64,000 nucleotides of DNA from Candidatus Beckwithbacteria bacterium GW2011_GWC1_49_16 (GTDB taxonomy: Bacteria > Patescibacteriota > Microgenomatia > UBA1400 > CG1-02-47-37). The notes beneath the pieces are model-generated. The model saw nothing but the letters and a program-made list of their open reading frames with translations. It ran no database searches and was not told the origin of the DNA. Position numbers and translations under genes: made by a program. Below, in pieces: positions 4,798 to 43,726 of the stretch; position 1 is the first letter of the stretch; every line of letters begins with the position of its first letter. The stretch spans positions 193-64,192 of the forward strand of contig CP011210.1 in NCBI GenBank assembly GCA_001029675.1. The letters are read 5' to 3'.

Positions 4798-5048
4798 CGC
4801 CTTTTGACAAATTCATCGAGTTTATTACCCGGCAGGGAATGATTGAGTTGGAGGCGGTCATACTGGGCAAGGCGGCGGTGATCCTGTTGCTGCTACTTTA
4901 CCTGGCCTTTTCTTTGGTGGTGGTGCGGCAGGTGAATTTGATGAACAAAACCATTAACGGTTTAATGGAAAAGAGGCTTTTGGTGGCGGCCAAAGCCTTG
5001 GTGGGGCTGGCAATGGTAGTATTAATCTTAGGACTAATAGTGTTATGA
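4794..5048 (+). CDS. Small hydrophobic membrane protein
   Basis: 84-aa ORF, translationally coupled on both sides, with hydrophobic stretches. Confidence 0.4.
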   Translation: MTPFDKFIEFITRQGMIELEAVILGKAAVILLLLLYLAFSLVVVRQVNLMNKTINGLMEKRLLVAAKALVGLAMVVLILGLIVL

Positions 5049-6964
5049 AATTTAACGTGGCCAAAATTGTCGGGACGGTGAACCAAACCACTTGGTCGCA
5101 GGTGCACGTGTTTTTGCCGGAAGGGGAGAAACTTTCTAGCCATGGTCAGTTGATCGCGGCTTTGAGTTTTGCGGCCAAAAAGGAGATCGAGATTGCCTCA
5201 TTCGGTAAAGAGATAATTGTCAGACTCCAGGAGATTTATTATTCCAACGAGGCGGAAAGCAGGCTTAAAAAAGTATCCCAGAGTATGGAGAGTTTGGCGG
5301 CCGAGTTTTACAACGAGGTGGAGCTTAATATGGCGCTGGCGGTAATCGTGCCATTGGGGGAGAAAAAGCTGGTTTATGCCGGAAGAAGAGGCGGCGGGCA
5401 GGTGTATCTTAAAAGGGACGAGGCGGTGGTGGGGTTGTTGGCCGCCGAGGAAAACCAGCAGGTGGTTTCGGGCGAACTTAAGGCTTTCGACAAGCTGGTG
5501 GTGGGGACTAGTCAGTTTTTCAAGATTGTGCCGGAGAGCCATTTGGAGATGGCTTTAAAAGAGGATCGGGCCGAGGCGGCGGTGGAGAGTCTCGGGGCGC
5601 TGGTTCACGGCAGAGAGGAAAACAGCCAGGCAGCGGCAGCGGTGGTGATGCCCATTCGACAAGGCTTCGGCGGTGAGCTCAGCCCAACCGCTCAGGGTAA
5701 AGGGGTTGAGCCTGCCGACGTAAAAAGTCTATCAGCGGTGTCAAGGTTGACGGCGCTGGCGAGTTCGGCGGGGCAGAGATTTAGGGGATTAATTAAGCAA
5801 GCCGTGGAGAGAGTCAGTAAAAGAGGTGGGGCGGAAGTGTTTGTGAGACCGGGGGCGAGCCGGGGCAAAAAGTCGACGGCAACGGTGATGATCGTTTTGG
5901 TGGTGATTTTTGGCTTGAGCCTGGTGTTAGCGGGCAGGAAGCGCCAAGTTAGAGTCAGAGAGGAAAAATATCAAGCAGTGGTGGAGGAGGTAAGTTACAA
6001 GGTGGATGAAGGGGAAGGACTTTTGGAGCTTAATCCGCTTCGGGCCCGGTCGCTTTTAAGCGAAGCCCAGGGTTTGATTGACAACTACAAATCCGAGAAC
6101 GAGGGGGAGGTGAGCGGGGAGCTTTCCGATCTTGAAAAGAGGCTTGGCGATTTGTTGGCCCAGGCGCAAAGAGAGTACGCGGTAGAGTCGGCTGACGAGT
6201 GGTTTGATTTTGGTTTGGTCAAGGAAGGGTTTAAGGCGACGGCTTGGGCGAGCGACGAGGGCAAGGTGTTGATCTGGGGAGAAGGAGAGAGGACGGTGGT
6301 GGAGCTTGATTTGACCAGTAAGTCGAGCGAAATTGTGGCCGGGGGAGACGAGGTGGGGTCGGGGAACTTAATCGCTTTGACCGGAGAGCGGGGGATGGTG
6401 GTAGGGAAGGATAAAATGGTGGTGGTTGATGTCAGCGGCGGTGAGGTGGCGGCCGAGGTGGCGGCAGACGGCTGGGGCAGGATCGTGAGCGCGGTCGGCT
6501 TTGGGGGGAACCTGTATCTTCTTGACGCGGTTGATGGGGGGCAGATTTGGAAGTATTTTGGGGTGGAGGCTGGCCTGTCTGATAAGCGAGAGTATTTGGC
6601 CGGCGAAGCTTATGATTTAAGCGCGGCAGTGGCGATGGCGATCGACGCTTCTATCTATGTGTTGTTTGACGACGGGACGATTGTTAAATACACCAGAGGG
6701 GCTAAGGACGCTTTTGCGGTCACCGGGCTTAATGAACCGTTTGGCGAGCCGGTGGGTATTTTTACCGCCAGCGACCAGGACAATATCTACGTTTTGGACA
6801 GAGCCAAAACCAGAGTGGTGGTGGTAGACAAAAGCGGCGAGTACCAGGCCGAGTACCGCTGGCCGGGGATTGCCGGAGTGAAAGATTTGGTGGTGAACGA
6901 GGAGTTAGGCAAGATCTTTTTGTTGGCGGATGAAAAGGTGTTTACGCTTGATTTGAATAAATGA
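5045..6964 (+). CDS. Large hypothetical protein with central TM helix (cytoplasmic N-domain, Gly-rich extracytoplasmic C-domain)
   Basis: 639-aa ORF. A transmembrane helix at about aa 290-310 (TVMIVLVVIFGLSLVLAG) and a G/V/D-rich C-terminal region. No family recognised. Confidence 0.55.
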   Translation: MKFNVAKIVGTVNQTTWSQVHVFLPEGEKLSSHGQLIAALSFAAKKEIEIASFGKEIIVRLQEIYYSNEAESRLKKVSQSMESLAAEFYNEVELNMALAVIVPLGEKKLVYAGRRGGGQVYLKRDEAVVGLLAAEENQQVVSGELKAFDKLVVGTSQFFKIVPESHLEMALKEDRAEAAVESLGALVHGREENSQAAAAVVMPIRQGFGGELSPTAQGKGVEPADVKSLSAVSRLTALASSAGQRFRGLIKQAVERVSKRGGAEVFVRPGASRGKKSTATVMIVLVVIFGLSLVLAGRKRQVRVREEKYQAVVEEVSYKVDEGEGLLELNPLRARSLLSEAQGLIDNYKSENEGEVSGELSDLEKRLGDLLAQAQREYAVESADEWFDFGLVKEGFKATAWASDEGKVLIWGEGERTVVELDLTSKSSEIVAGGDEVGSGNLIALTGERGMVVGKDKMVVVDVSGGEVAAEVAADGWGRIVSAVGFGGNLYLLDAVDGGQIWKYFGVEAGLSDKREYLAGEAYDLSAAVAMAIDASIYVLFDDGTIVKYTRGAKDAFAVTGLNEPFGEPVGIFTASDQDNIYVLDRAKTRVVVVDKSGEYQAEYRWPGIAGVKDLVVNEELGKIFLLADEKVFTLDLNK

Positions 6965-7407
6965 AAGTTATCAACAGAAAAGCCAGGTTTAATTACGAGC
7001 TTTCCGAACGGGTGGAGGCGGGAGTGGTGCTTTCTGGGGCGGAAGTGAAAAGCGCCAAACAGGGCAAAGTGAGCCTTAATGAGAGTTTTGCCCGGGTGGA
7101 TGATAAGGGGGAGTTGTGGCTTCATAACGCCCACATTCATCCTTACCAGTTTGCCGACAACAGAAACTATGAGCCAACCAGGTCCAGAAAGCTTTTGTTA
7201 AAGAAAAAAGAGATTTTGAGTTTGGCCAAGAAGATTGAGGGGAAGAGTTTGGCTTTGGTGCCGACGGCGATGTATGTTAAAAAAGGCAGAATCAAGGTGG
7301 AGGTAGCTATTGGCCGGGGTAAGAAAAAGTGGGACAAACGCGAGGCGATTAAAAAGCGCGAGCAGCGCCGGGAGTTGGCGCGCACGATCAGAGGAAAAGT
7401 GGTATAA
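6961..7407 (+). CDS. smpB: SsrA-binding protein
   Basis: RKARFNYEL...GAEVKS...LHNAHIHPY are conserved SmpB motifs. Confidence 0.93.
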   Translation: MKVINRKARFNYELSERVEAGVVLSGAEVKSAKQGKVSLNESFARVDDKGELWLHNAHIHPYQFADNRNYEPTRSRKLLLKKKEILSLAKKIEGKSLALVPTAMYVKKGRIKVEVAIGRGKKKWDKREAIKKREQRRELARTIRGKVV

Positions 7408-7418: not shown

Positions 7419-7794
7419 GGGGATGATTTGATTCGACGAGATTGGCTCTTTGACACCTGCAAGCAGACTTTGGTCAGTAGTCTTAAAACATCGACCAAAA
7501 AACAGCTGTCAACACAATTGCCAGCAAAGTAAAGACTTTCATTGCGGAAGCATTTGAAGTTTTTACTCCTTCTCGCTTAGCTTTGGCTGTAGCGTAAGGC
7601 ATTCTGGCCCACTTTGTTTGCGGAGTCGGGTCAGGGTGTAAACAAACACAAACCGTAAGCTAGCAGTTGACTCGGGCTAGCCCAAATTAAGAGTCAAACT
7701 TTTCTCCCACGAAGCCTCGGCGGAGTGGGATAAGCTTGTAGACGGTTAAAAGACTTTTTCTCGGACGAGGGCTCATTACCCTCCATCTCCACCC
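7419..7794 (+). ncRNA. ssrA: tmRNA (transfer-messenger RNA)
   Basis: The 5' end GGGGATGATTTGATTCGACG matches the tmRNA consensus. The 3' end GGACGAGGGCTCATTACCCTCCATCTCCACC gives a T-arm plus an acceptor that pairs with the 5' end, including G3:U70. There is an internal tag ORF ending ...SRLALAVA-TAA. It sits directly downstream of smpB and is about 376 nt long. Confidence 0.75.
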
Positions 7795-7809: not shown

Positions 7810-7838
7810 CACCTGCCACTGGCAGGTGTATTATTTTA
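7810..7838 (+). terminator. Intrinsic terminator after the tmRNA
   Basis: CACCTGCC-act-GGCAGGTG hairpin followed by TATTATTTT. Confidence 0.55.
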
Positions 7839-9454
7839 TGTCTAGTGAGAGAATTAAAGTAGGTAAAAATGAGTTGGGGCCTGGGGGAAGATTTTACTGC
7901 GAAAGCGTATCTTTTGATAGAGGTGGAGAGACTAGACAGGTAGTTGGAGGGATAGTTGAGGACGTCAGGGGCGGAGGGTTTTATGGACGAACGTTGTTAC
8001 TGCCTAATGCGGTGGTAAAAACGGCAGAGCCGGACAGTTGGCATTTATTTTGGAGAAACCTTAATTGGGGTTTAAAACCTTTTCCTTCTCAAAGTAGTGA
8101 GTTAGCGGCTCAATTAGATCATTTAGCCACCAAAATTATTCATAGAATTGTCCCAGTGGCCACTGACGGAGAGGTGGTTACACCAGACTCATTAGGTTAC
8201 GCCGATTTGGGCAGGTTGGGTTACGGCCAAGTATTAGAGAGAATGAGGGGGAGAGGGGTGAGGTTTGATGTCGCAAACGGGGAAAACGTTAAATTTGCCA
8301 GAACAAGAAGGACTGTTTGGAATTTATCATCGGTTTTGGGTATAGAACACGGGTCTCAAGTTCACCCTGATAACCCTTTTGGTAAGCAAAATATGTGGAT
8401 TAATGAAGGGGGACAGATGATTTGGCTTGATGTTTTGCCGGCAATAAAGCACACGGGATTTGTATTGCCGGCTTTTTACTTCCGGTTTCATAATGATGTT
8501 AAGCGGAACATAATGAGTGAAGAGAAGACGTTTAATAAGTTAAACACGAGTCGCCTCAGAGACTTTGTGGACGGTCGTTTGGATCAAATTGCCGGAGATG
8601 ATAAACGGGAGTTGACTTTTTACTTAGATAGTTATGATGGGGTTTCAGAGAAGTTTAAGCAGGAAATGAAGAGAGGGGCTAGAGACTTAGTGATAGAAGA
8701 CGCCTATAAAAGAGGAATAGTTTCGCAAAGCGAAGCACTAAGTTTAAATGAGTCTAATTTTGCTTACTATACATTTTTGGCCGAAAGGATTGTTAGCCCG
8801 GCCGCTAGAGCGTTTTGGGAGGCGGTGGAGATAAGCGATGAGTTTAAGAGAGATGTGAGAAGATTTTTAATCGACCCAAGCTTTAGAAAGGAAAAGATAG
8901 TGGAACATACGACTCTGGCAGGGCTGAAAAGAGCCTTTGATTTGGGTTTAGTTGATGGGCCAGATTGGCAGGAAGCAAAGGAGTTGCTTGTAGAGCCCTT
9001 AATGTCTGGAGTAGAGAAGAGGCGGTTGGCGGCTACTTATTTTGGAATGCAGCTTTGGTATACAGCTTATGGCTGGGCTAATAACCTTGTGGCCTGGTCC
9101 ACCATAGGAAGTACGCCTTTTTCCGAAAATCCTGGAGCGCGATTAGCCCTAGGGTTGTTTTTTGAGCTAGCCCTACCGAGCATTGTAAGGGGGGTTTCGA
9201 CAAGGTTAGTTAATGCCTTAACTGAGGATGATTTAAGCACAATGGTTAAAGTAGCAGTTTTGCCTAAGCTGGGAGGATATTTAGCAGTGCCGGCAGATTT
9301 GGCAAAACGTTACGGCGACAGGTCAGAACAAATTTGGCATTATACGAAGAGGGGTTTGGTGGCTTCTTTTTCTAAAGTACTGCAGCCATGGGGAGGGTGG
9401 AATAGCGATTTAGAGGAAAGGCTTTGGGGAGTTTTAAAAGGTGACAGGTGGTAG
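7838..9454 (+). CDS. Hypothetical protein (AT-richer than its neighbours)
   Basis: Long ORF whose likely start is the ATG at 7838 (MSSERIKVGK...). The listed 7826 start would lie inside the terminator stem. No family recognised. Confidence 0.55.
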   Translation: MSSERIKVGKNELGPGGRFYCESVSFDRGGETRQVVGGIVEDVRGGGFYGRTLLLPNAVVKTAEPDSWHLFWRNLNWGLKPFPSQSSELAAQLDHLATKIIHRIVPVATDGEVVTPDSLGYADLGRLGYGQVLERMRGRGVRFDVANGENVKFARTRRTVWNLSSVLGIEHGSQVHPDNPFGKQNMWINEGGQMIWLDVLPAIKHTGFVLPAFYFRFHNDVKRNIMSEEKTFNKLNTSRLRDFVDGRLDQIAGDDKRELTFYLDSYDGVSEKFKQEMKRGARDLVIEDAYKRGIVSQSEALSLNESNFAYYTFLAERIVSPAARAFWEAVEISDEFKRDVRRFLIDPSFRKEKIVEHTTLAGLKRAFDLGLVDGPDWQEAKELLVEPLMSGVEKRRLAATYFGMQLWYTAYGWANNLVAWSTIGSTPFSENPGARLALGLFFELALPSIVRGVSTRLVNALTEDDLSTMVKVAVLPKLGGYLAVPADLAKRYGDRSEQIWHYTKRGLVASFSKVLQPWGGWNSDLEERLWGVLKGDRW

Positions 9455-9470
9455 TTGGTTATAATTTAAT

Positions 9471-10169
9471 TTGATGGGCTTTTGGGACCTACTTTATCCT
9501 AGGCGCTGCGTCGGTTGCGGCAGAGAGGGGCAGTATTTTTGTGATCGGTGTTTGGCTGAAACCAGTCTTGAGACCGGCTGGCGCTGTCCGGAGTGCAACC
9601 GGGCATCAGTCGGCGGGGTAACCCACTTTGGCTGCAGAAAAAAGCATGGGCTTGACGGTTTGGTGACACTAGCCAGCTATCGAGGCTTGGTGCGTTTAGG
9701 CATTCATGAATTAAAATACCGGTTTTTGACGGACATGGAGAAAGAGATGAGGGGTTTGGCGGCCTTGAGATTAAAAGAGGGGCTAAAAAGCCGGCAAGGG
9801 TTGGAGCTTAGAAACCTAGTCAAAACCAAGCCGGCGGTAGTGCCGGTACCGCTTTATTGGCGGCGAAAAAACTGGCGCGGGTTTAACCAGGCAGAGTTTA
9901 TAGCCAAAATAGTGGCCGACGAGCTTAATCTGCCGCTTAAAACAGATTTTTTAGTGAGGAGCAAACCGACCAAGCCGCAGGTGGAGATGGCGAGAAAAGA
10001 GAGAATAAAGAATGTTAAAAGGGTTTTTGGGGTGGAGGCGGAAAAGTTACCTGAAAAAGCGCTTTTGGTCGACGATGTCTGGACGACCGGGGCGACGATG
10101 CGGGCGGCGGGGGCGGCGCTCAAGCGGGCAGGGGTGAAGGTAGTTTGGGGGCTGGCTTTGTCTAGATAA
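9471..10169 (+). CDS. comF: Competence protein ComF (phosphoribosyltransferase domain with N-terminal zinc ribbon)
   Basis: N-terminal CVGCG...CDRC...CPEC Cys pairs, and a C-terminal LVDDVWTTGATM PRTase motif. Confidence 0.85.
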   Translation: MMGFWDLLYPRRCVGCGREGQYFCDRCLAETSLETGWRCPECNRASVGGVTHFGCRKKHGLDGLVTLASYRGLVRLGIHELKYRFLTDMEKEMRGLAALRLKEGLKSRQGLELRNLVKTKPAVVPVPLYWRRKNWRGFNQAEFIAKIVADELNLPLKTDFLVRSKPTKPQVEMARKERIKNVKRVFGVEAEKLPEKALLVDDVWTTGATMRAAGAALKRAGVKVVWGLALSR

Positions 10170-11148
10170 ACTTTTGGATAAAGCGGGCGGCTTTGGCTTT
10201 GGCGCGTTCAGTGACTTTGATATAGACCAGGCCTTGGTGGGGTTGGCCATAAATGACGACGCTGGTTAGGGGAGCGAGCAACACCGCCGGTAAAACCGCC
10301 AGGTCCTCTTCGCCGTCCACCAAGATGACCCGGTGTCCCGGTTGGTAAGTTAACTGTTCAAGCGACTCAAGTAGTTTTTGGGTCAGCCTCCAGGTAATTG
10401 ACCCCGGCGGATTGGCGGCCGTCAGCCTGGGCCAGGAGTTTAAGCCTAAAGAGGCGAGGCTGGTAAAAATTTGCTGCCTTTGGGTTTTAAGATCGACCAC
10501 GGTCAGGTTGGGTTTGAAACCGTGGGAAATAAGCGACATGGTGGCAATGTCGCCGACGCTTATGGTCAAAAACGGCCGGGAGGCGGTAAGTTTCAGTCTG
10601 ACCTGGCGGCTGGTTAAAAGCCGGCTGAAGGGTTTTTTAAGGCTAGGCCGTAAGTTTTTGGGTAAGTAAAGCGGCCGGCGGCTGAAAATCTGGCCGTAAG
10701 CGAGTCCAGCCCGGCTGACTTGACCCTGGCGGATGCGGCTGGAGGAGAGAATTTTTTTGTCGCTGCTTTTAACCAAATCGATGATGACGGGTTTTAAGGA
10801 TTTGAGGTGGCGCTGGCGGCGCAGCCCGTTGATAATTTCTACCTGGTTGGCGGTGTCGGTCGAGGCGATGATGGCGTCAAAGTTGCCAGAAGCGGCCGGT
10901 TCGAGTTCGTCTTTTAAGTCAAAAATAGTGTAGCGGTTGGTAAGACGAGTAAGAAAACGGGAGAGAGTTTGGCGGCGGGAGGCGGGAGTTTGAATCAGGC
11001 CGGCGAGAAATTTTTGCTGGGAAAGCTTGCTTTCCGTCAGGCCGCAAGAAACCAAGTTGGCGTTTTCGGCCGCGGCTGAAAGCAGCCTTTGGTGGCCGAG
11101 GTGAAGGTGGTCAAAGGTGCCGGCGACGACGGCATGGCGAAAGCGCAT
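10162..11148 (-). CDS. Fusion of an archaeal-type cytidylyltransferase-like phosphopantetheine adenylyltransferase with a DUF359 (GTP-dependent dephospho-CoA kinase-like) domain
   Basis: The N-terminus VVAGTFDHLHLGHQRLL carries an HxGH nucleotidyltransferase motif. The C-terminal half has ISVGDIAT...VVDLKTQR...VDGEEDLAVLPAVLLAP, which resembles DUF359. Confidence 0.55.
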   Translation of the reverse strand: MRFRHAVVAGTFDHLHLGHQRLLSAAAENANLVSCGLTESKLSQQKFLAGLIQTPASRRQTLSRFLTRLTNRYTIFDLKDELEPAASGNFDAIIASTDTANQVEIINGLRRQRHLKSLKPVIIDLVKSSDKKILSSSRIRQGQVSRAGLAYGQIFSRRPLYLPKNLRPSLKKPFSRLLTSRQVRLKLTASRPFLTISVGDIATMSLISHGFKPNLTVVDLKTQRQQIFTSLASLGLNSWPRLTAANPPGSITWRLTQKLLESLEQLTYQPGHRVILVDGEEDLAVLPAVLLAPLTSVVIYGQPHQGLVYIKVTERAKAKAARFIQKFI

Positions 11149-11197: not shown

Positions 11198-11282
11198 GGT
11201 GGGGTGCTCCGAATCGGTTAAGGAACCGGTCTTGAAAACCGGCGCCCGCAAGGGCTTGTGAGTTCGAGTCTCACCCCCACCG
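11198..11282 (+). tRNA. tRNA-Ser (anticodon UGA)
   Basis: Acceptor GGTGGGG/CCCCACC; anticodon stem CCGGT/ACCGG with loop CTTGAAA; long variable arm GCCCgcaaGGGC; T-arm GTGAG-TTCGAGT-CTCAC. Folded by hand. Confidence 0.75.
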
Positions 11283-11294
11283 CTAGAATTGTCT

Positions 11295-11840
11295 TTAAGA
11301 GCGGAAGCCAATCTCGGAAATTTCAATTGGGTTGGACTCAAGTTTGTAAGGCCGATCTTTGGCAAAATCTACCATGTCAGGCGATCTGTAAAGCTGATAG
11401 CCTTCTTTTATAAACAGCCCAACAACCTCAATAGGAGTAATCTGAGGGGTGTAGAAAGTTCTGTCGGACAGTGAATAAGCCCAAATGAAAGAATCTCTCA
11501 TTTGGTGGAGACGGGCACCTTTGGGAGTATAGATGAGTCGTTTTGTATCGCCCAAAACTGCGACCGTACCCGACATTTGTTCTTGCGGGTCGGATATAAA
11601 AGGAAAGTACCGGTAGCTGACCCCCGAGCCGATTATCGGAGCCCTGATGTCGTTATCTATGTTTAGCGGCGCGCTCAAATTTTCGAGCTGTTGGTCGGTA
11701 ATAGCGTGGATGACAAACGGAAGACCTGAGCCAATCAGATTTTCTACCAAGGCAACCAGGGGTTGTCGTGGATGGGTGACAACCTCGAACTTAATAGTCT
11801 TAGGGCTGATTTCTCTGGTAAAAAACGGCCTTTCGGACAT
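11295..11840 (-). CDS. Hypothetical protein
   Basis: 181-aa ORF with non-repetitive composition. No family recognised. Confidence 0.45.
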   Translation of the reverse strand: MSERPFFTREISPKTIKFEVVTHPRQPLVALVENLIGSGLPFVIHAITDQQLENLSAPLNIDNDIRAPIIGSGVSYRYFPFISDPQEQMSGTVAVLGDTKRLIYTPKGARLHQMRDSFIWAYSLSDRTFYTPQITPIEVVGLFIKEGYQLYRSPDMVDFAKDRPYKLESNPIEISEIGFRS

Positions 11841-11886
11841 AAGTTTGAGGATTATATCATTGTTTAGAGGCTGTTGGGTTTAATTT

Positions 11887-11892
11887 GATATA
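11887..11892 (+). promoter_or_regulatory. Candidate -10 box (TATAAT) upstream of tRNA-Ser(GCU)
   Basis: TATAAT lies 13 nt upstream of the tRNA start. Confidence 0.3.
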
Positions 11893-11904
11893 ATGGGTTT
11901 TACT

Positions 11905-11991
11905 GGAGGAGTCGCTTAGTTGGTCCATAGCGGTGGTTTGCTAAACCGCTGAGGCGCAAGCCTCACGTGGGTTCGAATCCCACCTCCTCCG
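11905..11991 (+). tRNA. tRNA-Ser (anticodon GCU)
   Basis: Acceptor GGAGGAG/CTCCTCC; anticodon loop TTGCTAA; long variable arm; T-arm GTGGG-TTCGAAT-CCCAC. Confidence 0.75.
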
Positions 11992-12085
11992 CCTTCGTTT
12001 CACGACTTGCTCGCTCGGCGATTTAGCCGGCTTCGCATTCGGAAGCTTCGGCGGACAGGTCCGCTTTGGTGTAGAATAAATAAAT

Positions 12086-12649
12086 ATGACTGCCCTGTTT
12101 AGAAAACCAAGCCCTTTAAAAAAAGAAGAGGTTAAGGAATCGGAAGCGCCTAAGGCTCCTGTAAAAGTGGAAACGCTACTTTCCTGGCAGGCGCCGGTGC
12201 GGCCGTTTAAGAAAAGAGATCGGGAATACTACACCACCATTGGTGCCATCGGCTTTTTGCTGGCGGTGATACTCCTTTTTTTGAAAGAGTGGCTGTTGAT
12301 CGCTGTGATTGCGGCCTTGATGTTTGTGGCTTATGTTTTGGCCACGGTCGAGCCGGAAAAAACCAGCCACGAGATTACCACGGTGGGAATTCTAACGGGG
12401 GATAAGACTTACAAATGGGAAGACTTGAAGCGGTTTTGGTTTGAGACCAAGTGGAGCGATAAGATTTTACACGTCGACACCAAGCTTAGCTTTCCGGGAA
12501 GACTGATGCTCCTTTTAGGCGATACCAGCGAAGAAGAAGTGAAGAAAATTCTTGAACAGCACGTTCAGGAAGAGATACCCGAGGCGACGTTTATGGACAG
12601 GTCGGCTAAGTGGTTATCGGAAAAAGTGCCTTTGGAAAAAGAAAGCTGA
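12086..12649 (+). CDS. Hypothetical membrane protein
   Basis: 187-aa ORF with two adjacent transmembrane helices (IGAIGFLLAVILLF..., LLIAVIAALMFVAYVLA). Confidence 0.5.
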   Translation: MTALFRKPSPLKKEEVKESEAPKAPVKVETLLSWQAPVRPFKKRDREYYTTIGAIGFLLAVILLFLKEWLLIAVIAALMFVAYVLATVEPEKTSHEITTVGILTGDKTYKWEDLKRFWFETKWSDKILHVDTKLSFPGRLMLLLGDTSEEEVKKILEQHVQEEIPEATFMDRSAKWLSEKVPLEKES

Positions 12650-12663
12650 TAAAATACAGGTAG

Positions 12664-12735
12664 GCGCCCATAGTTGAATGGATACAACGGAAGATTGCGG
12701 ATCTTCTGGTGAAGGTTCGATTCCTTCTGGGCGCA
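12664..12735 (+). tRNA. tRNA-Arg (anticodon reads GCG; unusual)
   Basis: Acceptor GCGCCCA/TGGGCGC; D-arm GTTG-aatggata-CAAC; anticodon stem GAAGA/TCTTC with loop TTGCGGA; T-arm GAAGG-TTCGATT-CCTTC. Confidence 0.6.
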
Positions 12736-12846
12736 CCCATGAGCATTGACTCGGCAGACAAAAATTTTTAGCAGTGCTCACTCGGCGCCACATGGATATG
12801 CGCCATCTTCCGCGCTGGAAAATTTGTCTGCCTGCGTCTGACTATT

Positions 12847-12929
12847 GGAGGGGTGTGCCGAATGGTAAGGCACCGCTCTCGAAAAGCGGCGCCCGCAAGG
12901 GCTTGCAGGTTCGACTCCTGTCCCCTCCG
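12847..12929 (+). tRNA. tRNA-Ser (anticodon CGA)
   Basis: Acceptor GGAGGGG/CCCCTCC; anticodon stem CCGCT/AGCGG with loop CTCGAAA; long variable arm; T-loop TTCGACT. Confidence 0.75.
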
Positions 12930-12937
12930 CAACGTAA

Positions 12938-13011
12938 GCGCCTGTAGCTCAGAGGATTAGAGCGTCTGCCTCCGGAGCAGAAGGTCGTGAGTTCGAGTCT
13001 CACCAGGCGTA
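12938..13011 (+). tRNA. tRNA-Arg (anticodon CCG)
   Basis: Acceptor GCGCCTG/CAGGCGT; anticodon stem TCTGC/GCAGA with loop CTCCGGA; T-arm GTGAG-TTCGAGT-CTCAC. Confidence 0.75.
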
Positions 13012-13013
13012 CT

Positions 13014-13481
13014 ATGAAATCAAAGTCACGACGAGAGTTTTCGGCCGGGGGAGTGGTATACAGGAAACTCGAAGTACGAAACTCGAAGCACGAAACTGTT
13101 TGGTTGGTGTGCAAGCACTCGGGCTATCATCGCTGGGTATTGCCTAAAGGTTTGGTGGAGAAGGGGGAGAGTTTAAAAGACACGGCGGTGCGGGAAGTAG
13201 AGGAGGAGTGTGGCGTTAGAGCCAAAGTAATTGCTAAAATCCCCGAGCCGGAGCGCTACGTTTACACCATGGCTGGGCAAAAAGTGTTTAAGCTGGTGAC
13301 TTATTTTTTGATGGAGTATCAGTCGGGAAACATAAAAGATCACTCGTGGGAGATGGAAGAAGTGGAGTGGTTAGAGTTTGACCAAGCGGTCAAAAGGGTC
13401 GAGTTTAAGGGGGCAAAAGAAGTGTTGGAAAAGGCTAAAAAAATCAGAGACGAGCTGAAGCTAAAACAGAAGTTGATATAA
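13014..13481 (+). CDS. Nudix hydrolase
   Basis: Nudix box GLVEKGESLKDTAVREVEEECGV. The start is taken at the ATG at 13014, just after the tRNA-Arg; the 12987 start in the ORF track overlaps that tRNA. Confidence 0.8.
   Translation: MKSKSRREFSAGGVVYRKLEVRNSKHETVWLVCKHSGYHRWVLPKGLVEKGESLKDTAVREVEEECGVRAKVIAKIPEPERYVYTMAGQKVFKLVTYFLMEYQSGNIKDHSWEMEEVEWLEFDQAVKRVEFKGAKEVLEKAKKIRDELKLKQKLI
13068..13095. repeat. CGAA-heptad x4 element (ctcgaag tacgaaa ctcgaag cacgaaa) in frame in the Nudix gene
   Basis: Read directly from the sequence. It encodes KLEVRNSKHET, which is an insertion relative to the usual Nudix N-terminal strand. Confidence 0.8.
13476..13481 (+). promoter_or_regulatory. Candidate -10 box (TATAAT) upstream of tRNA-Ser(GGA)
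   Basis: TATAAT lies 12 nt upstream of the tRNA start. Confidence 0.3.
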
Positions 13482-13493
13482 TAGGAGAGTCTT

Positions 13494-13582
<89 letters not shown>

Positions 13583-13625: not shown

Positions 13626-14291
13626 ATGGACGAAGAACAAAAGATAAAAGAAAAAATAAGCAAGCTAGATCAACTTGATCCACAAAAGTTAATTCCACCA
13701 ATGTTTGCAAACATTCCAGAGATAGCAGGTCAAGTGAAAGTCGTGGCACGTAAATCGGACGGAAATATTGATTACATCATTACAGACGCAGGACAAATGT
13801 CAAGACGACAGATAAGAAATAGCTTTACCTATTTTAATGATGAAGAACTTGACGAGTACCCAGAATTATCAATTGATGAGAATAATTACGCTCGCCCTTT
13901 AGCTTATGGAAATATAAGAGAAATCTCGCCAGATATACTTTTTAGTGGGATGTTTGAGACAAACCCCGCACTCCGAGGAAAAGGAATGGGTGTGGCTTTT
14001 CAGGAACATTTAGTTAATCTAGCAAAAAAGCTGGGTTACAAATTTTTAGCTGGCTATCAAAATAATGCTGAAATTGCCCGCTTCTTTATAAAGCGCGGTC
14101 GCTACCTCCTGGAAGAGATAAAGGATGAATTGCAAGGGGAATTTGAAAGTATAAGAGATCAAGAAAACGACGAAACTTTATTTTACACAGTTAAATTTTT
14201 AAACCCCGAAGACGTCACTCGGTATATCAAACCCGAAAGGATTGATACAAGTGTTGAAGATAAGATTAGATTTAAAGAAGAGATAACTTAA
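13626..14291 (+). CDS. Hypothetical protein with a GNAT-like (acetyltransferase) core, AT-rich
   Basis: RGKGMGVAFQEHLVNLAKKLGYKFL resembles GNAT motif A. The codon usage is clearly AT-rich compared with the flanks. Confidence 0.45.
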   Translation: MDEEQKIKEKISKLDQLDPQKLIPPMFANIPEIAGQVKVVARKSDGNIDYIITDAGQMSRRQIRNSFTYFNDEELDEYPELSIDENNYARPLAYGNIREISPDILFSGMFETNPALRGKGMGVAFQEHLVNLAKKLGYKFLAGYQNNAEIARFFIKRGRYLLEEIKDELQGEFESIRDQENDETLFYTVKFLNPEDVTRYIKPERIDTSVEDKIRFKEEIT

Positions 14292-17807: not shown

Positions 17808-18308
17808 ATGAGTAAAGTGAAAATAATTCAGAGTTTTGAAAAGGGGATTGTGGTAATGCACAATGCCGGTTTATGGATGGAGAAGAGTGGGTTGAAGCCT
17901 AATAAATGGTGGAAGCCGGAGAACATGAATCGTAATTTTATACTAAAGCACACAGAGCCTGATGAGTTTTATGTGGCTTTAGTGGGAGATAAGCCAGCGG
18001 CTTCTATGGTTCTTCAGGAAACAGAGAGAAACCAAAGCTGGAAGAGCGTTGATGGGGATAAACCCAAAAGAGCTTTATATCTTCATTGGTTATGTGTGCA
18101 AAGGGACTTTGCCGGCAAGGGTTTTCCTAAAGTGATGGTGGAGTTTGCCAAAGGCGAAGCAAAAAAGAGAGGTTTTAGTTTATTAAGGCTTGATACGAAT
18201 GCCAACGAAGAAAAGCTGTGCTCGCTTTATGAAGGGTTGGGTTTTAGGTTGATGGGAAACGAAGAAGGAGATGGGCACAAAACGGCTTTTTACCAAATAA
18301 GGCTTTAG
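17808..18308 (+). CDS. GNAT family N-acetyltransferase
   Basis: LHWLCVQRDFAGKGFPKVMVEFAKGEAKKRGFSLLRLDTN matches GNAT motifs A and B. Confidence 0.65.
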   Translation: MSKVKIIQSFEKGIVVMHNAGLWMEKSGLKPNKWWKPENMNRNFILKHTEPDEFYVALVGDKPAASMVLQETERNQSWKSVDGDKPKRALYLHWLCVQRDFAGKGFPKVMVEFAKGEAKKRGFSLLRLDTNANEEKLCSLYEGLGFRLMGNEEGDGHKTAFYQIRL

Positions 18309-18405
18309 GCTGAGGATTTTATCCCAGAAGGGGAGCTGCGCCTTTGCCTCAAGAAAATAAATTGACATCGTATGGGAAGATAGAGCTTTTGGGTATAATG
18401 TATCA

Positions 18406-18741
18406 GTGAAGCTAAAAACATTAACTCAATATCAAGAAGAAGTAAAAAGGCTGGTAAAGAAGTTTAACTTGAACTGGTCTGTTTATATCCGATATATTCA
18501 TTTGGTTGAAGAGATTGGTGAGTTAGGCGAGGCGATTACAGTTCATCAAGGCGACAGAAAGGCGGGTTCAGGCGAGTCCGCTCTCGCAGATCATACAGAC
18601 TTAAAAGAAGAGCTCGGCGATGCTCTTTTCGGATTGATTGATATTGCCAGTCAGTTAGGGATTAGTATGGGTGAGGCATTAGAAGATGCTTTTAGGAGGT
18701 ATGAAGGAAAACTGAACAGTTTAAATAAAAAGATAGAGTGA
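18406..18741 (+). CDS. MazG-like nucleotide pyrophosphohydrolase (small all-alpha NTP-PPase)
   Basis: EEIGELGEAI...EELGDALFGLIDIA is the EExxE/D...ExxD MazG signature. Confidence 0.7.
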   Translation: MKLKTLTQYQEEVKRLVKKFNLNWSVYIRYIHLVEEIGELGEAITVHQGDRKAGSGESALADHTDLKEELGDALFGLIDIASQLGISMGEALEDAFRRYEGKLNSLNKKIE

Positions 18742-18848
18742 AGTCCTAACTTGGTCTAATGCGGGGAGGCAATATTTCTAGCTTTAAATAGCCTCAACAC
18801 CTATGCGTAGTTTCTTAATTTAACTTAGAACTTAGTATAATAACGTTT

Positions 18849-19337
18849 ATGAAAAGAAAATCTATCGTTTATCTAATTTGTGGATTTATCGGTGCTGGTA
18901 AAACTGCTTTTGCAAAGAAGCTAGAGGAAAAAACTGGTGCAGTGAGAATCACGAAAGATGAGTGGTCAATTCGTTTAATTGGAAACGATCCTACAATCGA
19001 TGGATATGAGGAATGGGATCATAAAATCTGCGATTTATCAAGGGATTTTGCATTCCAGCTTGCTGAAAAAGGGATTGATGTTATTATTGACGAGGGATTT
19101 TGGGAAAAAGAACTACGAGAGGAAATGAGAAGGAGAACAGGTAGAATTGGTGCTAAAGCTGTAATGTACTATGTTGAGACGCCGATAGAAACGATACGAG
19201 AAAGGGTTGTGGGAAGAAACGATAATCTCACGAAAGACTCGTTTAAGATTAGCAGAGAAATGTTTGAAAATTACCTGAAGTATTGGCAACCTCCTAGTGA
19301 AGATGAGGATTACGTTCTTGCCAGTGAAGTGAAATAA
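18849..19337 (+). CDS. P-loop kinase (AAA_33 / zeta-toxin / chloramphenicol-phosphotransferase-like fold)
   Basis: Walker A ICGFIGAGKTAF and Walker B-like VIIDEGFW. Confidence 0.65.
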   Translation: MKRKSIVYLICGFIGAGKTAFAKKLEEKTGAVRITKDEWSIRLIGNDPTIDGYEEWDHKICDLSRDFAFQLAEKGIDVIIDEGFWEKELREEMRRRTGRIGAKAVMYYVETPIETIRERVVGRNDNLTKDSFKISREMFENYLKYWQPPSEDEDYVLASEVK

Positions 19338-19486
19338 AATATATCAATTCTTGATATCCTCCTTCCCTTCAATATTTTCTAAACTAACGTCTAATTGAAG
19401 TTTCTTGTTCCTGAACATGTTTACTAAGGAAAGCCAAGGGTTATAGAAATTTGCAAAAAAGGCAATAAAAGAGATAAAGTAAGTAA

Positions 19487-20125
19487 ATGAATAATAAACT
19501 GGCTATGGGCATCCTTTTTGCCGTGGTTATCATCGGCGGCGTGGGAGCGTGGTTTCTGTTGGGTAGCAAAGGCGAAGGACAGCCGGCGGCAATAAGCACA
19601 GGGTCGGGGGTTGATACGGCAGCCGAAGAGGGAATGGATGACTGCTTTATCCCCAAACAGGGTGAAGCAGAATGTGTTATTGATGCCACTGCCGTGGTGG
19701 TGGAACGAGTAGTAACCGGCGGCCGGTGCGAAGGCCTTCGGGCGACCATAACTTTTGATACTGAAATGACTTCGCTTGAGCCTCAACAGCAAGGTGAGGT
19801 AGTGATGCAGATACATCCGCGAGGGGAAACTAATGACGGTTCGGCAGACACCGGTGCAGGAGTGGGCCACTACTCCGGCGGCAGATGGCTTCCTTTTAGC
19901 TTTGGCCCGGGCGACTCCCAGCCCGCGGAGGGGACTTTTACAGCTGAAGTGGAAGGTAATACCGTGACCCTTGAATTGTACGAGTTTGCCGACGGCAGCT
20001 GTATCACGGATGACAGCCAAATGCGACTGAAGGCAGAAATGACCAATCCTGCGGGCGAGCGCGTCTATGACGTTATCGGCACCTCCGATCTGATGGAGTA
20101 TGCGCCGCCTTTGTCGTACAAGTAG
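19487..20125 (+). CDS. Hypothetical secreted / membrane-anchored protein
   Basis: N-terminal transmembrane helix MGILFAVVIIGGVGAWFLL, then an acidic soluble domain. I prefer it to the Arg/His-rich antisense ORF at 19424-20143. Confidence 0.5.
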   Translation: MNNKLAMGILFAVVIIGGVGAWFLLGSKGEGQPAAISTGSGVDTAAEEGMDDCFIPKQGEAECVIDATAVVVERVVTGGRCEGLRATITFDTEMTSLEPQQQGEVVMQIHPRGETNDGSADTGAGVGHYSGGRWLPFSFGPGDSQPAEGTFTAEVEGNTVTLELYEFADGSCITDDSQMRLKAEMTNPAGERVYDVIGTSDLMEYAPPLSYK

Positions 20126-20147
20126 GAGAAGTCTCCAAACCATCCAA

Positions 20148-20531
20148 ATGGCTTTTGATTACACCGTCACCACCAAAAAATCGTTTGCTGAAGCGGTGGC
20201 GGAGGTTGAGAGGGAGACAGTCAGGGTAGGTTTTAAAGTTCTTTACGTCCACGACATCGCCTCTGCCCTGAAGGAGAAGGGATTTGAGCTTGAGCCATTT
20301 AAAATCATCGAGGTCTGCAGTGCCCAAAGCGCGAACAGAGTCCTTAAAGCGGACATCAAAATGGGTTTATGCCTGCCTTGTAAGATCAACGTCTACCAAA
20401 AGGGCGGGCAAACGTTTATCTCCGGGATGCGGCCGATTCTTTTGTCTCAACTTTTCCCCCAGGCAGATCTAGGCAGTTTTCCCGCAGAAGTCGACGGCAT
20501 TGTCAGGAAGATTATAGACAGGAGTAAGTAG
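20148..20531 (+). CDS. DUF302 family protein
   Basis: MAFDYTVTTKKSFAEAVAEVER...GFKVLYVHDI resembles DUF302. The start is trimmed to the internal ATG so that it does not overlap the previous gene. Confidence 0.6.
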   Translation: MAFDYTVTTKKSFAEAVAEVERETVRVGFKVLYVHDIASALKEKGFELEPFKIIEVCSAQSANRVLKADIKMGLCLPCKINVYQKGGQTFISGMRPILLSQLFPQADLGSFPAEVDGIVRKIIDRSK

Positions 20532-20532
20532 G

Positions 20533-20937
20533 ATGGATGAGGGTCAGGATTTAAGACGACTTTATCAAAGCATCAAAACCATTGCCGTGGTGGGGTTGTC
20601 GGACAATGAGGCGCGGCCGTCTTTTGAAGTAGCCAGTTACCTAAAAAACCAGGGTTATAAAATCATTCCGGTCAATCCGATGATTGAGAGTTGGATGGGC
20701 GAGAAAAGTTATTCGTCGCTTGAAGACATTGCCGAGCGGGTTGATGTGGTTGATATCTTTAGAAAACCGGAGTTTGTAGGTGAAATTATGGACCAAGCGA
20801 TTAAAATCGACGCCAAAGTGGTCTGGATGCAAGAGGGAATAGTGAACGAAAAAGCGGCTCAAAAAGGCCGGGATGCAGGGCTAACGGTGGTGATGGACCG
20901 GTGCCTGATGAAAGAGCACAAAAAGCTATTTAAGTGA
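20533..20937 (+). CDS. CoA-binding domain protein (YccU-like)
   Basis: IAVVGLSDNEARPSFEVASYLKNQGYKIIPVNP matches the CoA_binding_2 family. Confidence 0.75.
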   Translation: MDEGQDLRRLYQSIKTIAVVGLSDNEARPSFEVASYLKNQGYKIIPVNPMIESWMGEKSYSSLEDIAERVDVVDIFRKPEFVGEIMDQAIKIDAKVVWMQEGIVNEKAAQKGRDAGLTVVMDRCLMKEHKKLFK

Positions 20938-29899: not shown

Positions 29900-31204
29900 A
29901 TGTGGCGCAAAATAGCAGTCTGGGTCGGTTTGGTCGGCGTTTTAATCGGGGGGGGTTTGACGGGTTTAAAGTTGTTACCCAAAAAGGAGTGGGTGGGGCC
30001 GAAGCACACGGTAGCGGTAGTGGCGATAGACACGGCGCCGAAAAATTTGTGGGACGAGGAGATAGGCATTTATGTTAAGGGCAATCACGACAATTACCTG
30101 CAGAAAGGAAAAGTTTGGGAGAGGCCGGCAGAGATAAAGTTTTATGAGGTTGACGGCAAGTTGGTTTTTGAAAACAAAATTGGTTTGAGGCTCCACGGCG
30201 AAGGGACCCGGTTAATGCCGCAAAAGTCGTTTAGAGTTTATTTTAAAGAAGTGGAGGGCGGGGCAGGGATAATAAGCTACCCGGTGTTTGGAGCCGAGGG
30301 AAGTAAAAGATACGCCAGCTTGGTGTTGAGGCCGGGAGACAACCAGGAGACGATGATTAGGGATGAGCTGGCCAGTAGGTTGGTGAGACAAAACTCGGAT
30401 ATAGACGTGCGTTTGGCCCGGCCGGTGGCGGTGTACCTTAACGGAGAATATTGGGGACTTTATTTTCTTCAGGAGAGGTTCGACCAGGCTTACTTTAGGG
30501 AAAGATACGGCGCCAGTTCTAACTTATTGGATTTAGTCGAAGTGGTTTTGGCCAGCGGGGAAAACAAGGGTTTGGCGGTGGTGGATAAAGAACTTAACAA
30601 CCAGGTAGCCGTGGAAGAATATAATCAGCTTTTGGCCAAGGTGCGGGAGTGTCATGGTTGTTTCGGTTACTATTCTTTGGACGGGATAGTAGATCTGACT
30701 AACTTAAGGGATTATTTGGTTTGGGAGATGTTTTTTGGCAATGCCGACTGGCCCTACAATAATACTAGGGCTTGGCGGTATAAAAAAGAAGGCAAGGGCG
30801 AACTGGATGGGAGATGGCGCTGGTTGCTGTTTGACCTTGATGCGGGCATGGGGGAGGCTGCCGTCAATCCTTATGACCAGTTGGTGGATGAAGCCTTCCC
30901 CTTAAGAAACTTGTTTTATGATCCGAACTTTATCAGCGGTTATTCGAGGAGGGTTGAGGAGCTTTTTGGCGGAAAGTTTCGCGGGGAGGAGTTGGCGGCG
31001 GAGGTTGACAGCTTAGCGGCCGAGGTGAGGCCGGAGATGGCGCGCCAAATTGAGCGTTGGGGCAATCAAGTTGCAGACGATGGCTCGCATGGAGTCGGGA
31101 GCCTGGATGAATGGGAGAGGCAAATTGAATTGTTGAAAGTGTTTTTAAGCAATCGGCCCGAGGAGTTTGTCAGCTTAACGAAAAGTTTTGCGGCCGGGGT
31201 TTGA
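29900..31204 (+). CDS. CotH-family protein (atypical kinase fold), membrane-anchored
   Basis: KKSFRVYF, YLNGEYWGLYFLQE and DLTNLRDYLVWEMFFGNADW are CotH motifs. Confidence 0.7.
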   Translation: MWRKIAVWVGLVGVLIGGGLTGLKLLPKKEWVGPKHTVAVVAIDTAPKNLWDEEIGIYVKGNHDNYLQKGKVWERPAEIKFYEVDGKLVFENKIGLRLHGEGTRLMPQKSFRVYFKEVEGGAGIISYPVFGAEGSKRYASLVLRPGDNQETMIRDELASRLVRQNSDIDVRLARPVAVYLNGEYWGLYFLQERFDQAYFRERYGASSNLLDLVEVVLASGENKGLAVVDKELNNQVAVEEYNQLLAKVRECHGCFGYYSLDGIVDLTNLRDYLVWEMFFGNADWPYNNTRAWRYKKEGKGELDGRWRWLLFDLDAGMGEAAVNPYDQLVDEAFPLRNLFYDPNFISGYSRRVEELFGGKFRGEELAAEVDSLAAEVRPEMARQIERWGNQVADDGSHGVGSLDEWERQIELLKVFLSNRPEEFVSLTKSFAAGV

Positions 31205-37450: not shown

Positions 37451-37451
37451 T

Positions 37452-38678: not shown

Positions 38679-39106
38679 AGTCAAACGGTTTTACTTTTTT
38701 GGAAATTTTGGTAGTGATGGCGATGATGGCGACGATGGGGATAGCCGGGGTTATAACTTACGGTCGGGTACAGAGACAAGAAGAAATGACGGCAGTGGTG
38801 GTGACCGTAGCGGAAATTTTAGCCAGGGCTAGAGTGGGTTCGGTGAGCGGAGACAAGGATACCAGTTGGCGGGTCGATCTTCTGGCCAACAAGGCGGAGT
38901 TAAAGGATGGCTTGGGCAACTTGGTGGTCCAGTACAGCCTACCGGCAAGATACAGTTTGAGTTCGCCGGTGAGTCAAGTCGAGTTTGGGCGGGGTGACGG
39001 CCGGGTGGCCGGTTGTGAGTCGGGGTGTTTAGTCACCGTTAGCCAACTGGGGGGGAGTTTAAGCCAGAGCTTTCGCATTTTGTATTCAGGGGTAGTGGAG
39101 TACTAA
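38675..39106 (+). CDS. Prepilin-type (pseudopilin/minor pilin) protein
   Basis: N-terminal MKSNGFTFLEILVVMAMM is a class III signal and N-methylation motif. Confidence 0.75.
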   Translation: MKSNGFTFLEILVVMAMMATMGIAGVITYGRVQRQEEMTAVVVTVAEILARARVGSVSGDKDTSWRVDLLANKAELKDGLGNLVVQYSLPARYSLSSPVSQVEFGRGDGRVAGCESGCLVTVSQLGGSLSQSFRILYSGVVEY

Positions 39107-41472: not shown

Positions 41473-41476
41473 GTTA

Positions 41477-43702: not shown

Positions 43703-43726
43703 TTTGAAAGGAGGTGAGAAAAGTAA

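Follow-up and report, generated by a model that had tools for sequence, protein, structure and literature searches.

A predicted two-step coenzyme A synthase of archaeal-type domains in Microgenomates bacteria of the Candidate Phyla Radiation

Introduction

Can a bacterium finish its coenzyme A (CoA) with a single protein built from archaeal-type parts? The question is raised by a gene in a 64,000-nt stretch of contig CP011210.1 from Candidatus Beckwithbacteria bacterium GW2011_GWC1_49_16, a groundwater bacterium with a very small genome (the whole stretch is called the window hereafter). From the sequence only, its product had been read as a fusion of an archaeal-type pantetheine-phosphate adenylyltransferase (PPAT) with a DUF359 domain, the family of the archaeal GTP-dependent dephospho-CoA kinase (DPCK). 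Bacterial CoaD and CoaE, which carry out these two reactions, are encoded by separate genes.

DUF359 (arCOG04076, Pfam family PF04019) belongs to the pan-archaeal core, with arCOG04076 present in 454 of 524 genomes, and was described by Makarova et al. (2019) as the sole uncharacterised gene of that core, for which domain fusions indicated a role in CoA biosynthesis (PMC6393860). One PPAT-arCOG04076 fusion, AIF21550.1 from uncultured group II/III euryarchaea, provided a clue to the finding that standalone TK1697 of Thermococcus kodakarensis is a GTP-dependent DPCK (Shimosaka, Makarova, Koonin & Atomi, 2019; PMC6650551). In that study, iterative PSI-BLAST found nothing beyond arCOG04076, and the enzyme was treated as archaeal, with bacteria not discussed. 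A full-text literature search found no paper on a DUF359 DPCK or a PPAT-DPCK fusion in the Candidate Phyla Radiation (CPR) or Patescibacteria, and a 2025 review of bacterial CoA metabolism makes no mention of archaeal-type enzymes.

Here we report a bacterial protein in which complete PPAT and DUF359-DPCK domains, both with intact active sites, are joined on one chain. The fusion is no singleton and is found in hundreds of CPR species. To judge from domain content and active-site conservation, it is probably a bifunctional two-step CoA synthase of archaeal-type domains, and its distribution points to acquisition from archaea.

Two archaeal-type domains with intact active sites

The reading frame has the very coordinates given in the sequence-only reading and runs on the minus strand from ATG start to TAG stop (Table 1), and every peptide quoted there is present in the product: VVAGTFDHLHLGHQ at aa 7-20, ISVGD at 196-200, VDLKTQR at 218-224 and VDGEEDLAVLP at 277-287. 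The profile search that had been suggested found PF01467 in the N-terminal and DUF359 in the C-terminal half, with no unrelated family assigned to the latter.

PF01467 (cytidylyltransferase-like) matched aa 8-141 (Pfam, E 1.7e-9), and the NCBIfam model for archaeal-type PPAT, NF001985, matched aa 2-148 with 106.0 bits (cutoff 104; E 1.8e-30), whereas the bacterial CoaD model TIGR01510 gave 13.1 bits against a cutoff of 103.3. The N-terminus is hence of the archaeal PPAT type and not a bacterial CoaD, as had been claimed. It also matched the sequence of the Archaeoglobus fulgidus PPAT in the PDB (3do8, E 8.5e-8), and the two parts of the nucleotidyltransferase signature, (H/T)xGH and ISxxxxR, are present as H16-L-G-H19 and S135-S136-S-R138-I139-R140.

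In the C-terminal half, PF04019/DUF359 was found on aa 203-327 (E 1.9e-31; 108.7 bits, gathering score 25; profile positions 2-125 of 126), and NF041125, the GTP-dependent DPCK model, on aa 161-326 (model positions 4-168 of 176; E 1.2e-31). The PDB sequence match was 8jvc, the T. kodakarensis GTP-dependent DPCK (E 8.1e-24, 35% identity), and the domain spans the full length of the Thermococcus enzyme. Asp48, Asp67 and Asp125 of TK1697 are its putative catalytic residues, and the growth rate of the mutants dropped dramatically with D48A and D67A and less with D125A (Shimosaka et al., PMC6650551); all three have invariant counterparts in the window protein (Table 1). The family match, the 8jvc match and the three aspartates bear out the assignment of the C-terminus to the DUF359 archaeal DPCK family. 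Neither a P-loop nor similarity to CoaE was found in this half with the Pfam and NCBIfam profiles.

Conservation was assessed in an alignment of 35 fusion homologs that are 29-54% identical to the window protein, with a mean column identity of 32%. Invariant positions in the PPAT half were G10, D13, H16, G18, H19, S136 and I139, with S135, R138 and R140 conserved in at least 90%; those in the DPCK half were G199, D200, D219, R224, G279-E-E-D-L283, Y300 and G301. Since the motifs and aspartates are invariant against so low a mean column identity, the alignment indicates that both catalytic centres are under strong purifying selection, which argues against a decayed or merely regulatory domain.

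An AlphaFold2 model of the fusion protein, with the 35-sequence alignment as input, had a mean predicted local distance difference test score (pLDDT) of 95.3 and a predicted template-modelling score of 0.91. Foldseek matched its C-terminal domain to 8jvc, 8jvg and 8jvf (E down to 5.5e-16, target-normalised template-modelling scores 0.81-0.86, 34-36% identity) and its N-terminal domain to 3do8 (E 6.5e-7, target-normalised score 0.79); bacterial CoaD structures were matched at the superfamily level (E ~5e-5, score ~0.6).

A bacterial host

The genes for transfer-messenger RNA (tmRNA) and SmpB adjoin each other close to the fusion gene (Table 1), and DnaG primase and a full-length sigma-70 RpoD are encoded 3-6 kb from it, all of which identify the host as a bacterium. 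The domains, the active sites and the host being observed directly, the occurrence of archaeal-type PPAT and DPCK domains on a single polypeptide in a bacterium, which the sequence-only reading had thought would be notable, is real. The window protein is 100% identical to UX85_C0008G0043 (P0001) of Candidatus Beckwithbacteria bacterium GW2011_GWB1_47_15, 87 blocks of the assembly collection contain the identical protein, and the same gene order surrounds the gene in four independent assemblies (ENA, NCBI, JGI). Composition along the window has no discontinuity at the fusion gene.

Distribution in Microgenomates and archaea

A word-indexed search returned 142 homologs at E<=1e-5; among the matches listed, all carry PF04019 and all but one PF01467, and those with names belong to Beckwithbacteria, Levyibacteriota, Microgenomates or Patescibacteria. 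Scanning GTDB with one genome for each species confirmed at least 523 relatives, mostly in Microgenomates, together with Poseidoniales and one DPANN archaeon. The locus-level results below rest on 80 loci retrieved from these, one per GTDB species. The full two-domain protein is encoded at all 80, split by a frameshift at one (L069). Their labels include Levyi-, Roizman-, Gottesman- and Chisholmbacteria, unclassified Patescibacteria, one 'Saccharibacteria', one Paceibacterota and six archaea.

Of the 80 loci, 33 are titled 'uncultured Gammaproteobacteria', 'uncultured Pseudomonadales' or 'Vitreimonas sp.'. Proteobacterial hosts were rejected on three grounds, namely a GC content of 31-50%, interleaving of the proteins with those of Levyi-, Roizman- and Gottesmanbacteria in the tree, and synteny shared with Levyibacteria; ten of these loci have at least six syntenic neighbour families in common with Levyibacteria-labelled loci. 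The titles are systematic taxonomic mislabels in third-party annotation (TPA) and co-assembly submissions of metagenome-assembled genomes (MAGs; binchicken, SMAG). Examples are L001, L004, L005, L009, L012, L013 and L016 (Gammaproteobacteria) and L052, L076 and L078 (Pseudomonadales); L080 ('Vitreimonas sp.'), on a 1.41-Mb contig, is likewise Patescibacteria by GC, tree and synteny.

An exhaustive phmmer search with the DPCK half alone gave 2,244 cluster representatives at E<=1e-3, of which 1,411 remained at E<=1e-10. Among the 150 best DUF359 representatives, 112 have the length of the fusion (at least 300 aa), and several of the top hits that are short are pieces of fusions on short contigs. 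Genuine standalone DUF359 proteins are archaeal (Hadarchaeales, Methanopyrus and others), and bacterial labels with the fusion are confined to Patescibacteria among those seen. Database names usually cover one half of the protein: NCBI uses 'pantetheine-phosphate adenylyltransferase', JGI 'GTP-dependent dephospho-CoA kinase' or 'UPF0218/PPAT'.

Synteny around the fusion gene is lineage-specific. The conserved block of Levyibacteria comprises SBP, VanW, GreA, DUF192, TsaD, RmuC, Ham1 and SerRS, and no CoA gene was found in it. At 23 Levyibacteria-type loci (L004-L077), a standalone cytidylyltransferase-like protein of 156-170 aa is encoded 3-9 kb upstream of the fusion (for example L037:5630-6115, minus strand); it was rejected as a CoaD, its closest model being RfaE domain II (heptose-1-phosphate adenylyltransferase), with 107 bits against a cutoff of 181.

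Two other architectures involving DUF359 were seen. P0210 (505 aa) joins DUF359 (aa 130-259) to a C-terminal glucosamine-6-phosphate isomerase/6-phosphogluconolactonase domain (PF01182) and has no PPAT. A Roizmanbacteria-type subclade (bootstrap 1.0) encodes a three-domain protein of ~495-514 aa, in which an archaeal-type NMN adenylyltransferase (NMNAT) precedes PPAT and DPCK (Table 1). Its NMNAT domain scored 122 bits with NF002243 (cutoff 127) and E 2.4e-32 with TIGR01527, and the polypeptide may, by its domain content, complete both NAD and CoA. No description of such a triple fusion was found in the literature searched, and neither CoaBC nor PanK was found as a partner of DUF359 among the other fusion architectures.

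Phylogeny and origin of the fusion

In an unrooted neighbour-joining tree of full-length fusions (324 columns, 300 bootstraps), a robust split (100%) separated five Poseidoniales/Euryarchaeota fusions from the 74 bacterial fusions together with one archaeal fusion, L035. The bacterial clades match the candidate-phylum labels Levyi-, Roizman- and Gottesmanbacteria with bootstrap values of 0.76-1.0. Because they track these labels, the tree agrees with an early acquisition and subsequent vertical inheritance within Microgenomates.

The fused gene very probably came from archaea, as judged from its distribution: nearly all archaea have the family and its range among bacteria is phylogenetically narrow, which makes archaea to CPR the parsimonious direction. 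The history we propose would be an ancient transfer from archaea and vertical inheritance in the Microgenomates branch of the CPR, with a DPANN archaeon carrying the same fusion lineage.

L035 is a genuine archaeon: encoded around its fusion gene are an archaeal-type SRP54, a class I CCA-adding enzyme, GatE, Elp3 and a RibL-like protein. The organism is 'Ca. Norongarragalina meridionalis' LFW-144_1, a MAG of DPANN Micrarchaeia with 93.5% completeness (PMC8561730). Its fusion gene (9713-10957, plus strand) lies back to back with the gene for the RibL-like, FMN adenylyltransferase-type protein (9445-9840, minus strand), and a tRNA-Arg gene is at 9858-9933. The grouping of L035 with the bacterial fusions and its RibL-like neighbour hint at gene exchange between CPR and DPANN and at a clustering of cofactor-finishing nucleotidyltransferases.

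CoA pathway context

Among the Pfam-annotated called genes of the window (~160-63,170), none encodes CoaE (PF01121), CoaBC (PF02441/PF04127), pantothenate kinase or a second PPAT. Escherichia coli CoaE and CoaD, verified against the PDB, were used as phmmer queries on the window and 86 loci, the related ones with 10-kb flanks (1.48 Mb). With CoaE, the six-frame open reading frames (ORFs) gave no hit at E<=1, in a search of low power; with CoaD, weak superfamily-level hits were obtained, to the fusions and other nucleotidyltransferases only. Motif screens for CoaE and CoaD in the 1.48 Mb, also of low power, were negative as well.

Two nearby genes were considered and rejected as CoA enzymes. 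A 162-aa AAA_33 P-loop kinase (18849-19337) gave no CoaE signal even at E<=1 and hence is not a hidden CoaE; its closest models are PSTK and gluconokinase, far below cutoff. A NUDIX protein (12987-13481) was dismissed as a CoA pyrophosphatase, its best models being MutT/RppH-like and all below cutoff.

The organism clearly uses CoA, since a CoA_binding_2 protein (20533-20937, E 2e-41) and a GNAT acetyltransferase (17808-18308) are encoded within 10 kb of the fusion gene.

Proposed function and alternatives

Our preferred reading is that the protein makes dephospho-CoA from 4'-phosphopantetheine and CoA from dephospho-CoA, which we regard as probable given its domains and their conserved active sites. 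The N-terminal domain would adenylylate 4'-phosphopantetheine with ATP to give dephospho-CoA, and the C-terminal DUF359 domain would phosphorylate the 3'-OH of dephospho-CoA to give CoA. The phosphate donor would probably be GTP as in Thermococcus, a preference that is rather likely by this analogy. With both steps on one chain, the two activities would be present in 1:1 stoichiometry, and the intermediate could be handed over directly from one site to the other.

In genomes as reduced as these, the fusion would most likely serve a short route from scavenged 4'-phosphopantetheine (or dephospho-CoA) to CoA. A conversion of scavenged 4'-phosphopantetheine by PPAT and DPCK only has been proposed for mycoplasmas (PMC8721197). 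That the fusion replaces CoaD and CoaE and supports a scavenging lifestyle is a tentative proposal, to which we give almost, but not quite, an even chance. A broader form of the proposal has somewhat less than an even chance: in Microgenomates, CoaD and CoaE might have been wholly replaced by the archaeal-derived fusion shared with DPANN Micrarchaeia, as the sole CoA-making machinery, fed by scavenged host-derived 4'-phosphopantetheine, with one Roizmanbacteria subclade extended by NMNAT and so finishing both NAD and CoA.

Several points count against a two-step CoA synthase of archaeal descent. GTP preference is known from a single archaeal enzyme, and the PPAT model NF001985 was cleared by a narrow margin (106 vs 104 bits). 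The DPCK equivalog NF041125, a Thermococcales-specific model, stayed far under its cutoff (109.6 vs 300 bits), a score that excludes a Thermococcales ortholog and not membership of the DUF359 family. The search for coaD, coaE, coaBC and PanK covered ~6% of this genome and ~2% of the others. Finally, in a neighbour-joining tree of the DPCK domain (74 bacterial and six archaeal fusions with 11 labelled archaeal standalones; 157 columns, 200 bootstraps), deep nodes had ~0 support, so that it is distribution, not a rooted phylogeny, that bears on how many transfers there were and in which direction.

Three other explanations were weighed. If the fusion gene were archaeal contamination, or the product of a chimeric assembly, that had been binned with a bacterial genome, the bacterial occurrence would be spurious; PF04019 is treated as a universal archaeal marker (it is among the 149 of CheckM1; PMC10134863), CPR and DPANN organisms share the same groundwater samples, and several public records with the fusion gene are obviously mislabelled taxonomically. 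Yet in the 64-kb window the tmRNA gene is 2.4 kb from the fusion gene and those for SmpB, DnaG and RpoD are no more than 6 kb from it, and 74 of the 80 related loci are bacterial with CPR-specific synteny, some on contigs of 0.6-1.2 Mb. With the identical protein so widely recorded, the same neighbours in four independent assemblies and no compositional break, contamination or chimerism is excluded, and we leave it practically no probability. A role on other substrates is quite improbable. PPAT and DPCK homologs could act on FAD, NAD, a CDP- or ADP-activated alcohol or another nucleotide cofactor instead of making CoA: PF01467 is broad, with weak hits of the protein to models of FAD synthetase, NMNAT and glycerol-3-phosphate cytidylyltransferase, the PPAT subfamily score is 2 bits over its cutoff, DUF359 is a distant relative of thiamine pyrophosphokinases (PMC6650551), and one relative (P0210) is fused to a 6-phosphogluconolactonase-type domain instead. 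Against this, PPAT (1.8e-30 for NF001985 vs >=1e-4 for RibF and NMNAT models) and DPCK are the best assignments by at least 20 orders of magnitude, and the same archaeal architecture is tied to CoA synthesis by the genetics and biochemistry of standalone orthologs (PMC6650551). Moreover, NMNAT function, where present, comes from an extra, separate domain, which implies that the central domain is not itself an NMNAT.

The fusion could also be active but redundant, an accessory or differently regulated isozyme beside canonical CoaD and CoaE kept elsewhere in the genome, an alternative that we consider unlikely. The modest fraction of the genome inspected leaves room for it, and two DPCK families can coexist, because T. 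kodakarensis encodes both, its P-loop DPCK homologs TK1334 and TK2192 being without DPCK activity beside the real enzyme (PMC6650551). On the other side, neither the window nor the 1.48 Mb flanking the gene in 80 fusion-bearing genomes yielded a CoaE or CoaD homolog, and the strict conservation of the active sites over deep divergence argues for an essential role. Furthermore, CPR genomes are of ~1 Mb, a size at which redundancy is expected to be rare. We therefore retain the two-step CoA synthase as the preferred reading.

Relation to known systems and significance

The window protein belongs to the known family of archaeal PPAT-DPCK fusions, as a bacterial (CPR) member, and neither the enzyme type nor the architecture is new. 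It resembles the archaeal PPAT-arCOG04076 fusions in domain order, domain families and size (~330-375 aa), and the Poseidoniales fusions L064, L066 and L067 align with it end to end at 31-34% identity. It differs from them in its host, a bacterium of the CPR (Microgenomates), and the Poseidoniales/Euryarchaeota fusions form the clade of their own described above, apart from those of the CPR and the one DPANN archaeon.

The likeness to TK1697 (8jvc/8jvf/8jvg) extends over the whole domain of 160-170 residues, with 35% identity, Asp48/Asp67/Asp125 kept and the same predicted fold; TK1697 is standalone, whereas in the window protein the DPCK domain is the C-terminal half of a fusion and has diverged from that of Thermococcales, as reflected by the unmet NF041125 cutoff. 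With archaeal/eukaryotic PPATs (COG1019; Pyrococcus abyssi PPAT, TK2128, 3do8), it has in common the NF001985 match, the HxGH and ISxxRIR motifs and the fold, but here the PPAT is fused to a DPCK and is ~20% identical to 3do8. Bacterial CoaD and CoaE carry out the two reactions predicted for the window protein, and CoaD has the same nucleotidyltransferase superfamily fold; the difference lies in the very low score with the CoaD model and in a kinase half that lacks a P-loop and CoaE similarity.

Eukaryotic COASY also has PPAT and DPCK on one polypeptide in the same order, with a PPAT of the archaeal/eukaryotic family. Its kinase is a P-loop CoaE homolog, and in a PDB search the entry 2f6r, named 'Bifunctional coenzyme A synthase', matched E. 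coli CoaE; the kinase of the window protein, in contrast, has the unrelated DUF359 Rossmann-like fold. Because the kinase domains are unrelated, COASY and the window protein are analogous, convergent fusions whose kinase halves are not homologous.

DUF359 DPCK has been seen as an archaeal hallmark, described in 2019 as the archaeal counterpart of bacterial CoaE, and the CPR fusions qualify this archaea-specificity: a large lineage of bacteria most likely uses archaeal parts for the final two steps of CoA synthesis. They also offer a tangible example of genes shared by CPR bacteria with DPANN or other archaea, and a testable idea, 4'-phosphopantetheine scavenging, for the CoA supply of very small organisms. 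Were full replacement and sharing with DPANN true, an 'archaea-specific' enzyme would be a common trait of two ultra-small symbiotic radiations. There are practical implications too, as annotation pipelines name half of the fusion protein and archaeal marker sets can misread CPR bins; with PF04019 as a CheckM1 marker, CPR copies might introduce a slight error into completeness or contamination estimates for archaea, or into domain calls, in mixed bins.

Gene neighbourhood and other features of the window

Coordinates of the fusion gene, its domains and motifs, and other features are collected in Table 1.

Table 1. The PPAT-DPCK fusion gene, its domains and residues, and other features (window positions; for triple fusions, positions at their own loci)
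Feature	Coordinates	Strand	Evidence or remark
PPAT/DPCK fusion gene, complete	10162..11148	minus	328 aa; ATG 11148-11146, TAG stop 10164-10162
N-terminal domain, aa 1-150, nucleotidyltransferase Rossmann fold, archaeal/eukaryotic-type PPAT	10699..11148	minus	NF001985, PF01467, 3do8
GTFDHLHLGH (aa 10-19), HxGH nucleotide-binding signature H16, G18, H19	11092..11121	minus	35-homolog alignment
LSSSRIR (aa 134-140), second nucleotidyltransferase motif ISxxRIR	10729..10749	minus	35-homolog alignment
Short inter-domain junction, aa 151-160	10669..10698	minus	PPAT model up to aa 148, DPCK model from aa 161; pLDDT >=89
C-terminal domain, aa 161-328, DUF359/arCOG04076, GTP-dependent DPCK-type	10165..10668	minus	PF04019, NF041125, 8jvc
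Asp200, equivalent to catalytic Asp48 of T. kodakarensis DPCK, in SVGD	10549..10551	minus	8jvc alignment; invariant
Asp219, equivalent to catalytic Asp67, in VDLKTQR	10492..10494	minus	8jvc alignment; invariant
Asp282, equivalent to Asp125, in GEEDL	10303..10305	minus	8jvc alignment; invariant
SmpB gene	6961-7407		adjoins tmRNA
tmRNA gene	7419-7794	plus	Rfam RF00023, 79.3 bits; 2.4 kb from fusion gene
Flanking ORF without Pfam match	5045-6964	plus	639 aa
Flanking ORF without Pfam match	7826-9454	plus	542 aa
Flanking ORF without Pfam match	13626-14291	plus	221 aa
Flanking ORF without Pfam match	11295-11840	minus	181 aa
Triple fusions (NMNAT-PPAT-DPCK)	L008:9506-11050, L010:9497-10984, L026:9497-11041, L056:9494-11026	plus	also P0097, P0158

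The 3' end of the fusion gene overlaps by 8 nt a convergent comF-like phosphoribosyltransferase gene (9471-10169, plus strand), and a divergent tRNA-Ser gene begins 50 nt upstream of the ATG. A promoter scan upstream found no sigma-70 consensus but only a TAGAAT ~10 nt before the ATG, and no obvious Shine-Dalgarno sequence precedes the ATG. For four ORFs flanking the fusion gene, no Pfam match was found at E<=1e-3 (Table 1). Nearly all genes of the window are on the plus strand, the PPAT-DPCK gene being among the few on the minus strand, and GC skew is strongly positive throughout positions 1-64000 (0.08-0.33 per 2-kb window), with a monotonic cumulative skew.

A tRNA cluster at 11198-13582 comprises four tRNA-Ser (tga, gct, cga, gga) and two tRNA-Arg (gcg, ccg) genes, interspersed with small protein genes for a DUF5673-like protein and a NUDIX hydrolase; tRNA-Ser(tga) is flanked by the fusion gene and the 181-aa ORF, both on the strand opposite to the tRNA. 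A run of small genes at 17808-20937 encodes the GNAT acetyltransferase, MazG, the AAA_33 P-loop kinase, a 212-aa unannotated protein, DUF302 and the CoA_binding_2 protein. Elsewhere in the window are a type IV pilus/type II secretion system (T2SS)-like cluster at 35744-44281 on the plus strand (T2SSE, T2SSF, PilM/N/O, prepilins), a pair of [NiFe]-hydrogenase large and small subunit genes (PF00374, PF01058) at 49357-51154 on the minus strand, and genes for a CotH-family protein (29900-31204), an Fe/Mn superoxide dismutase, a SUF Fe-S cluster operon and glycolysis.

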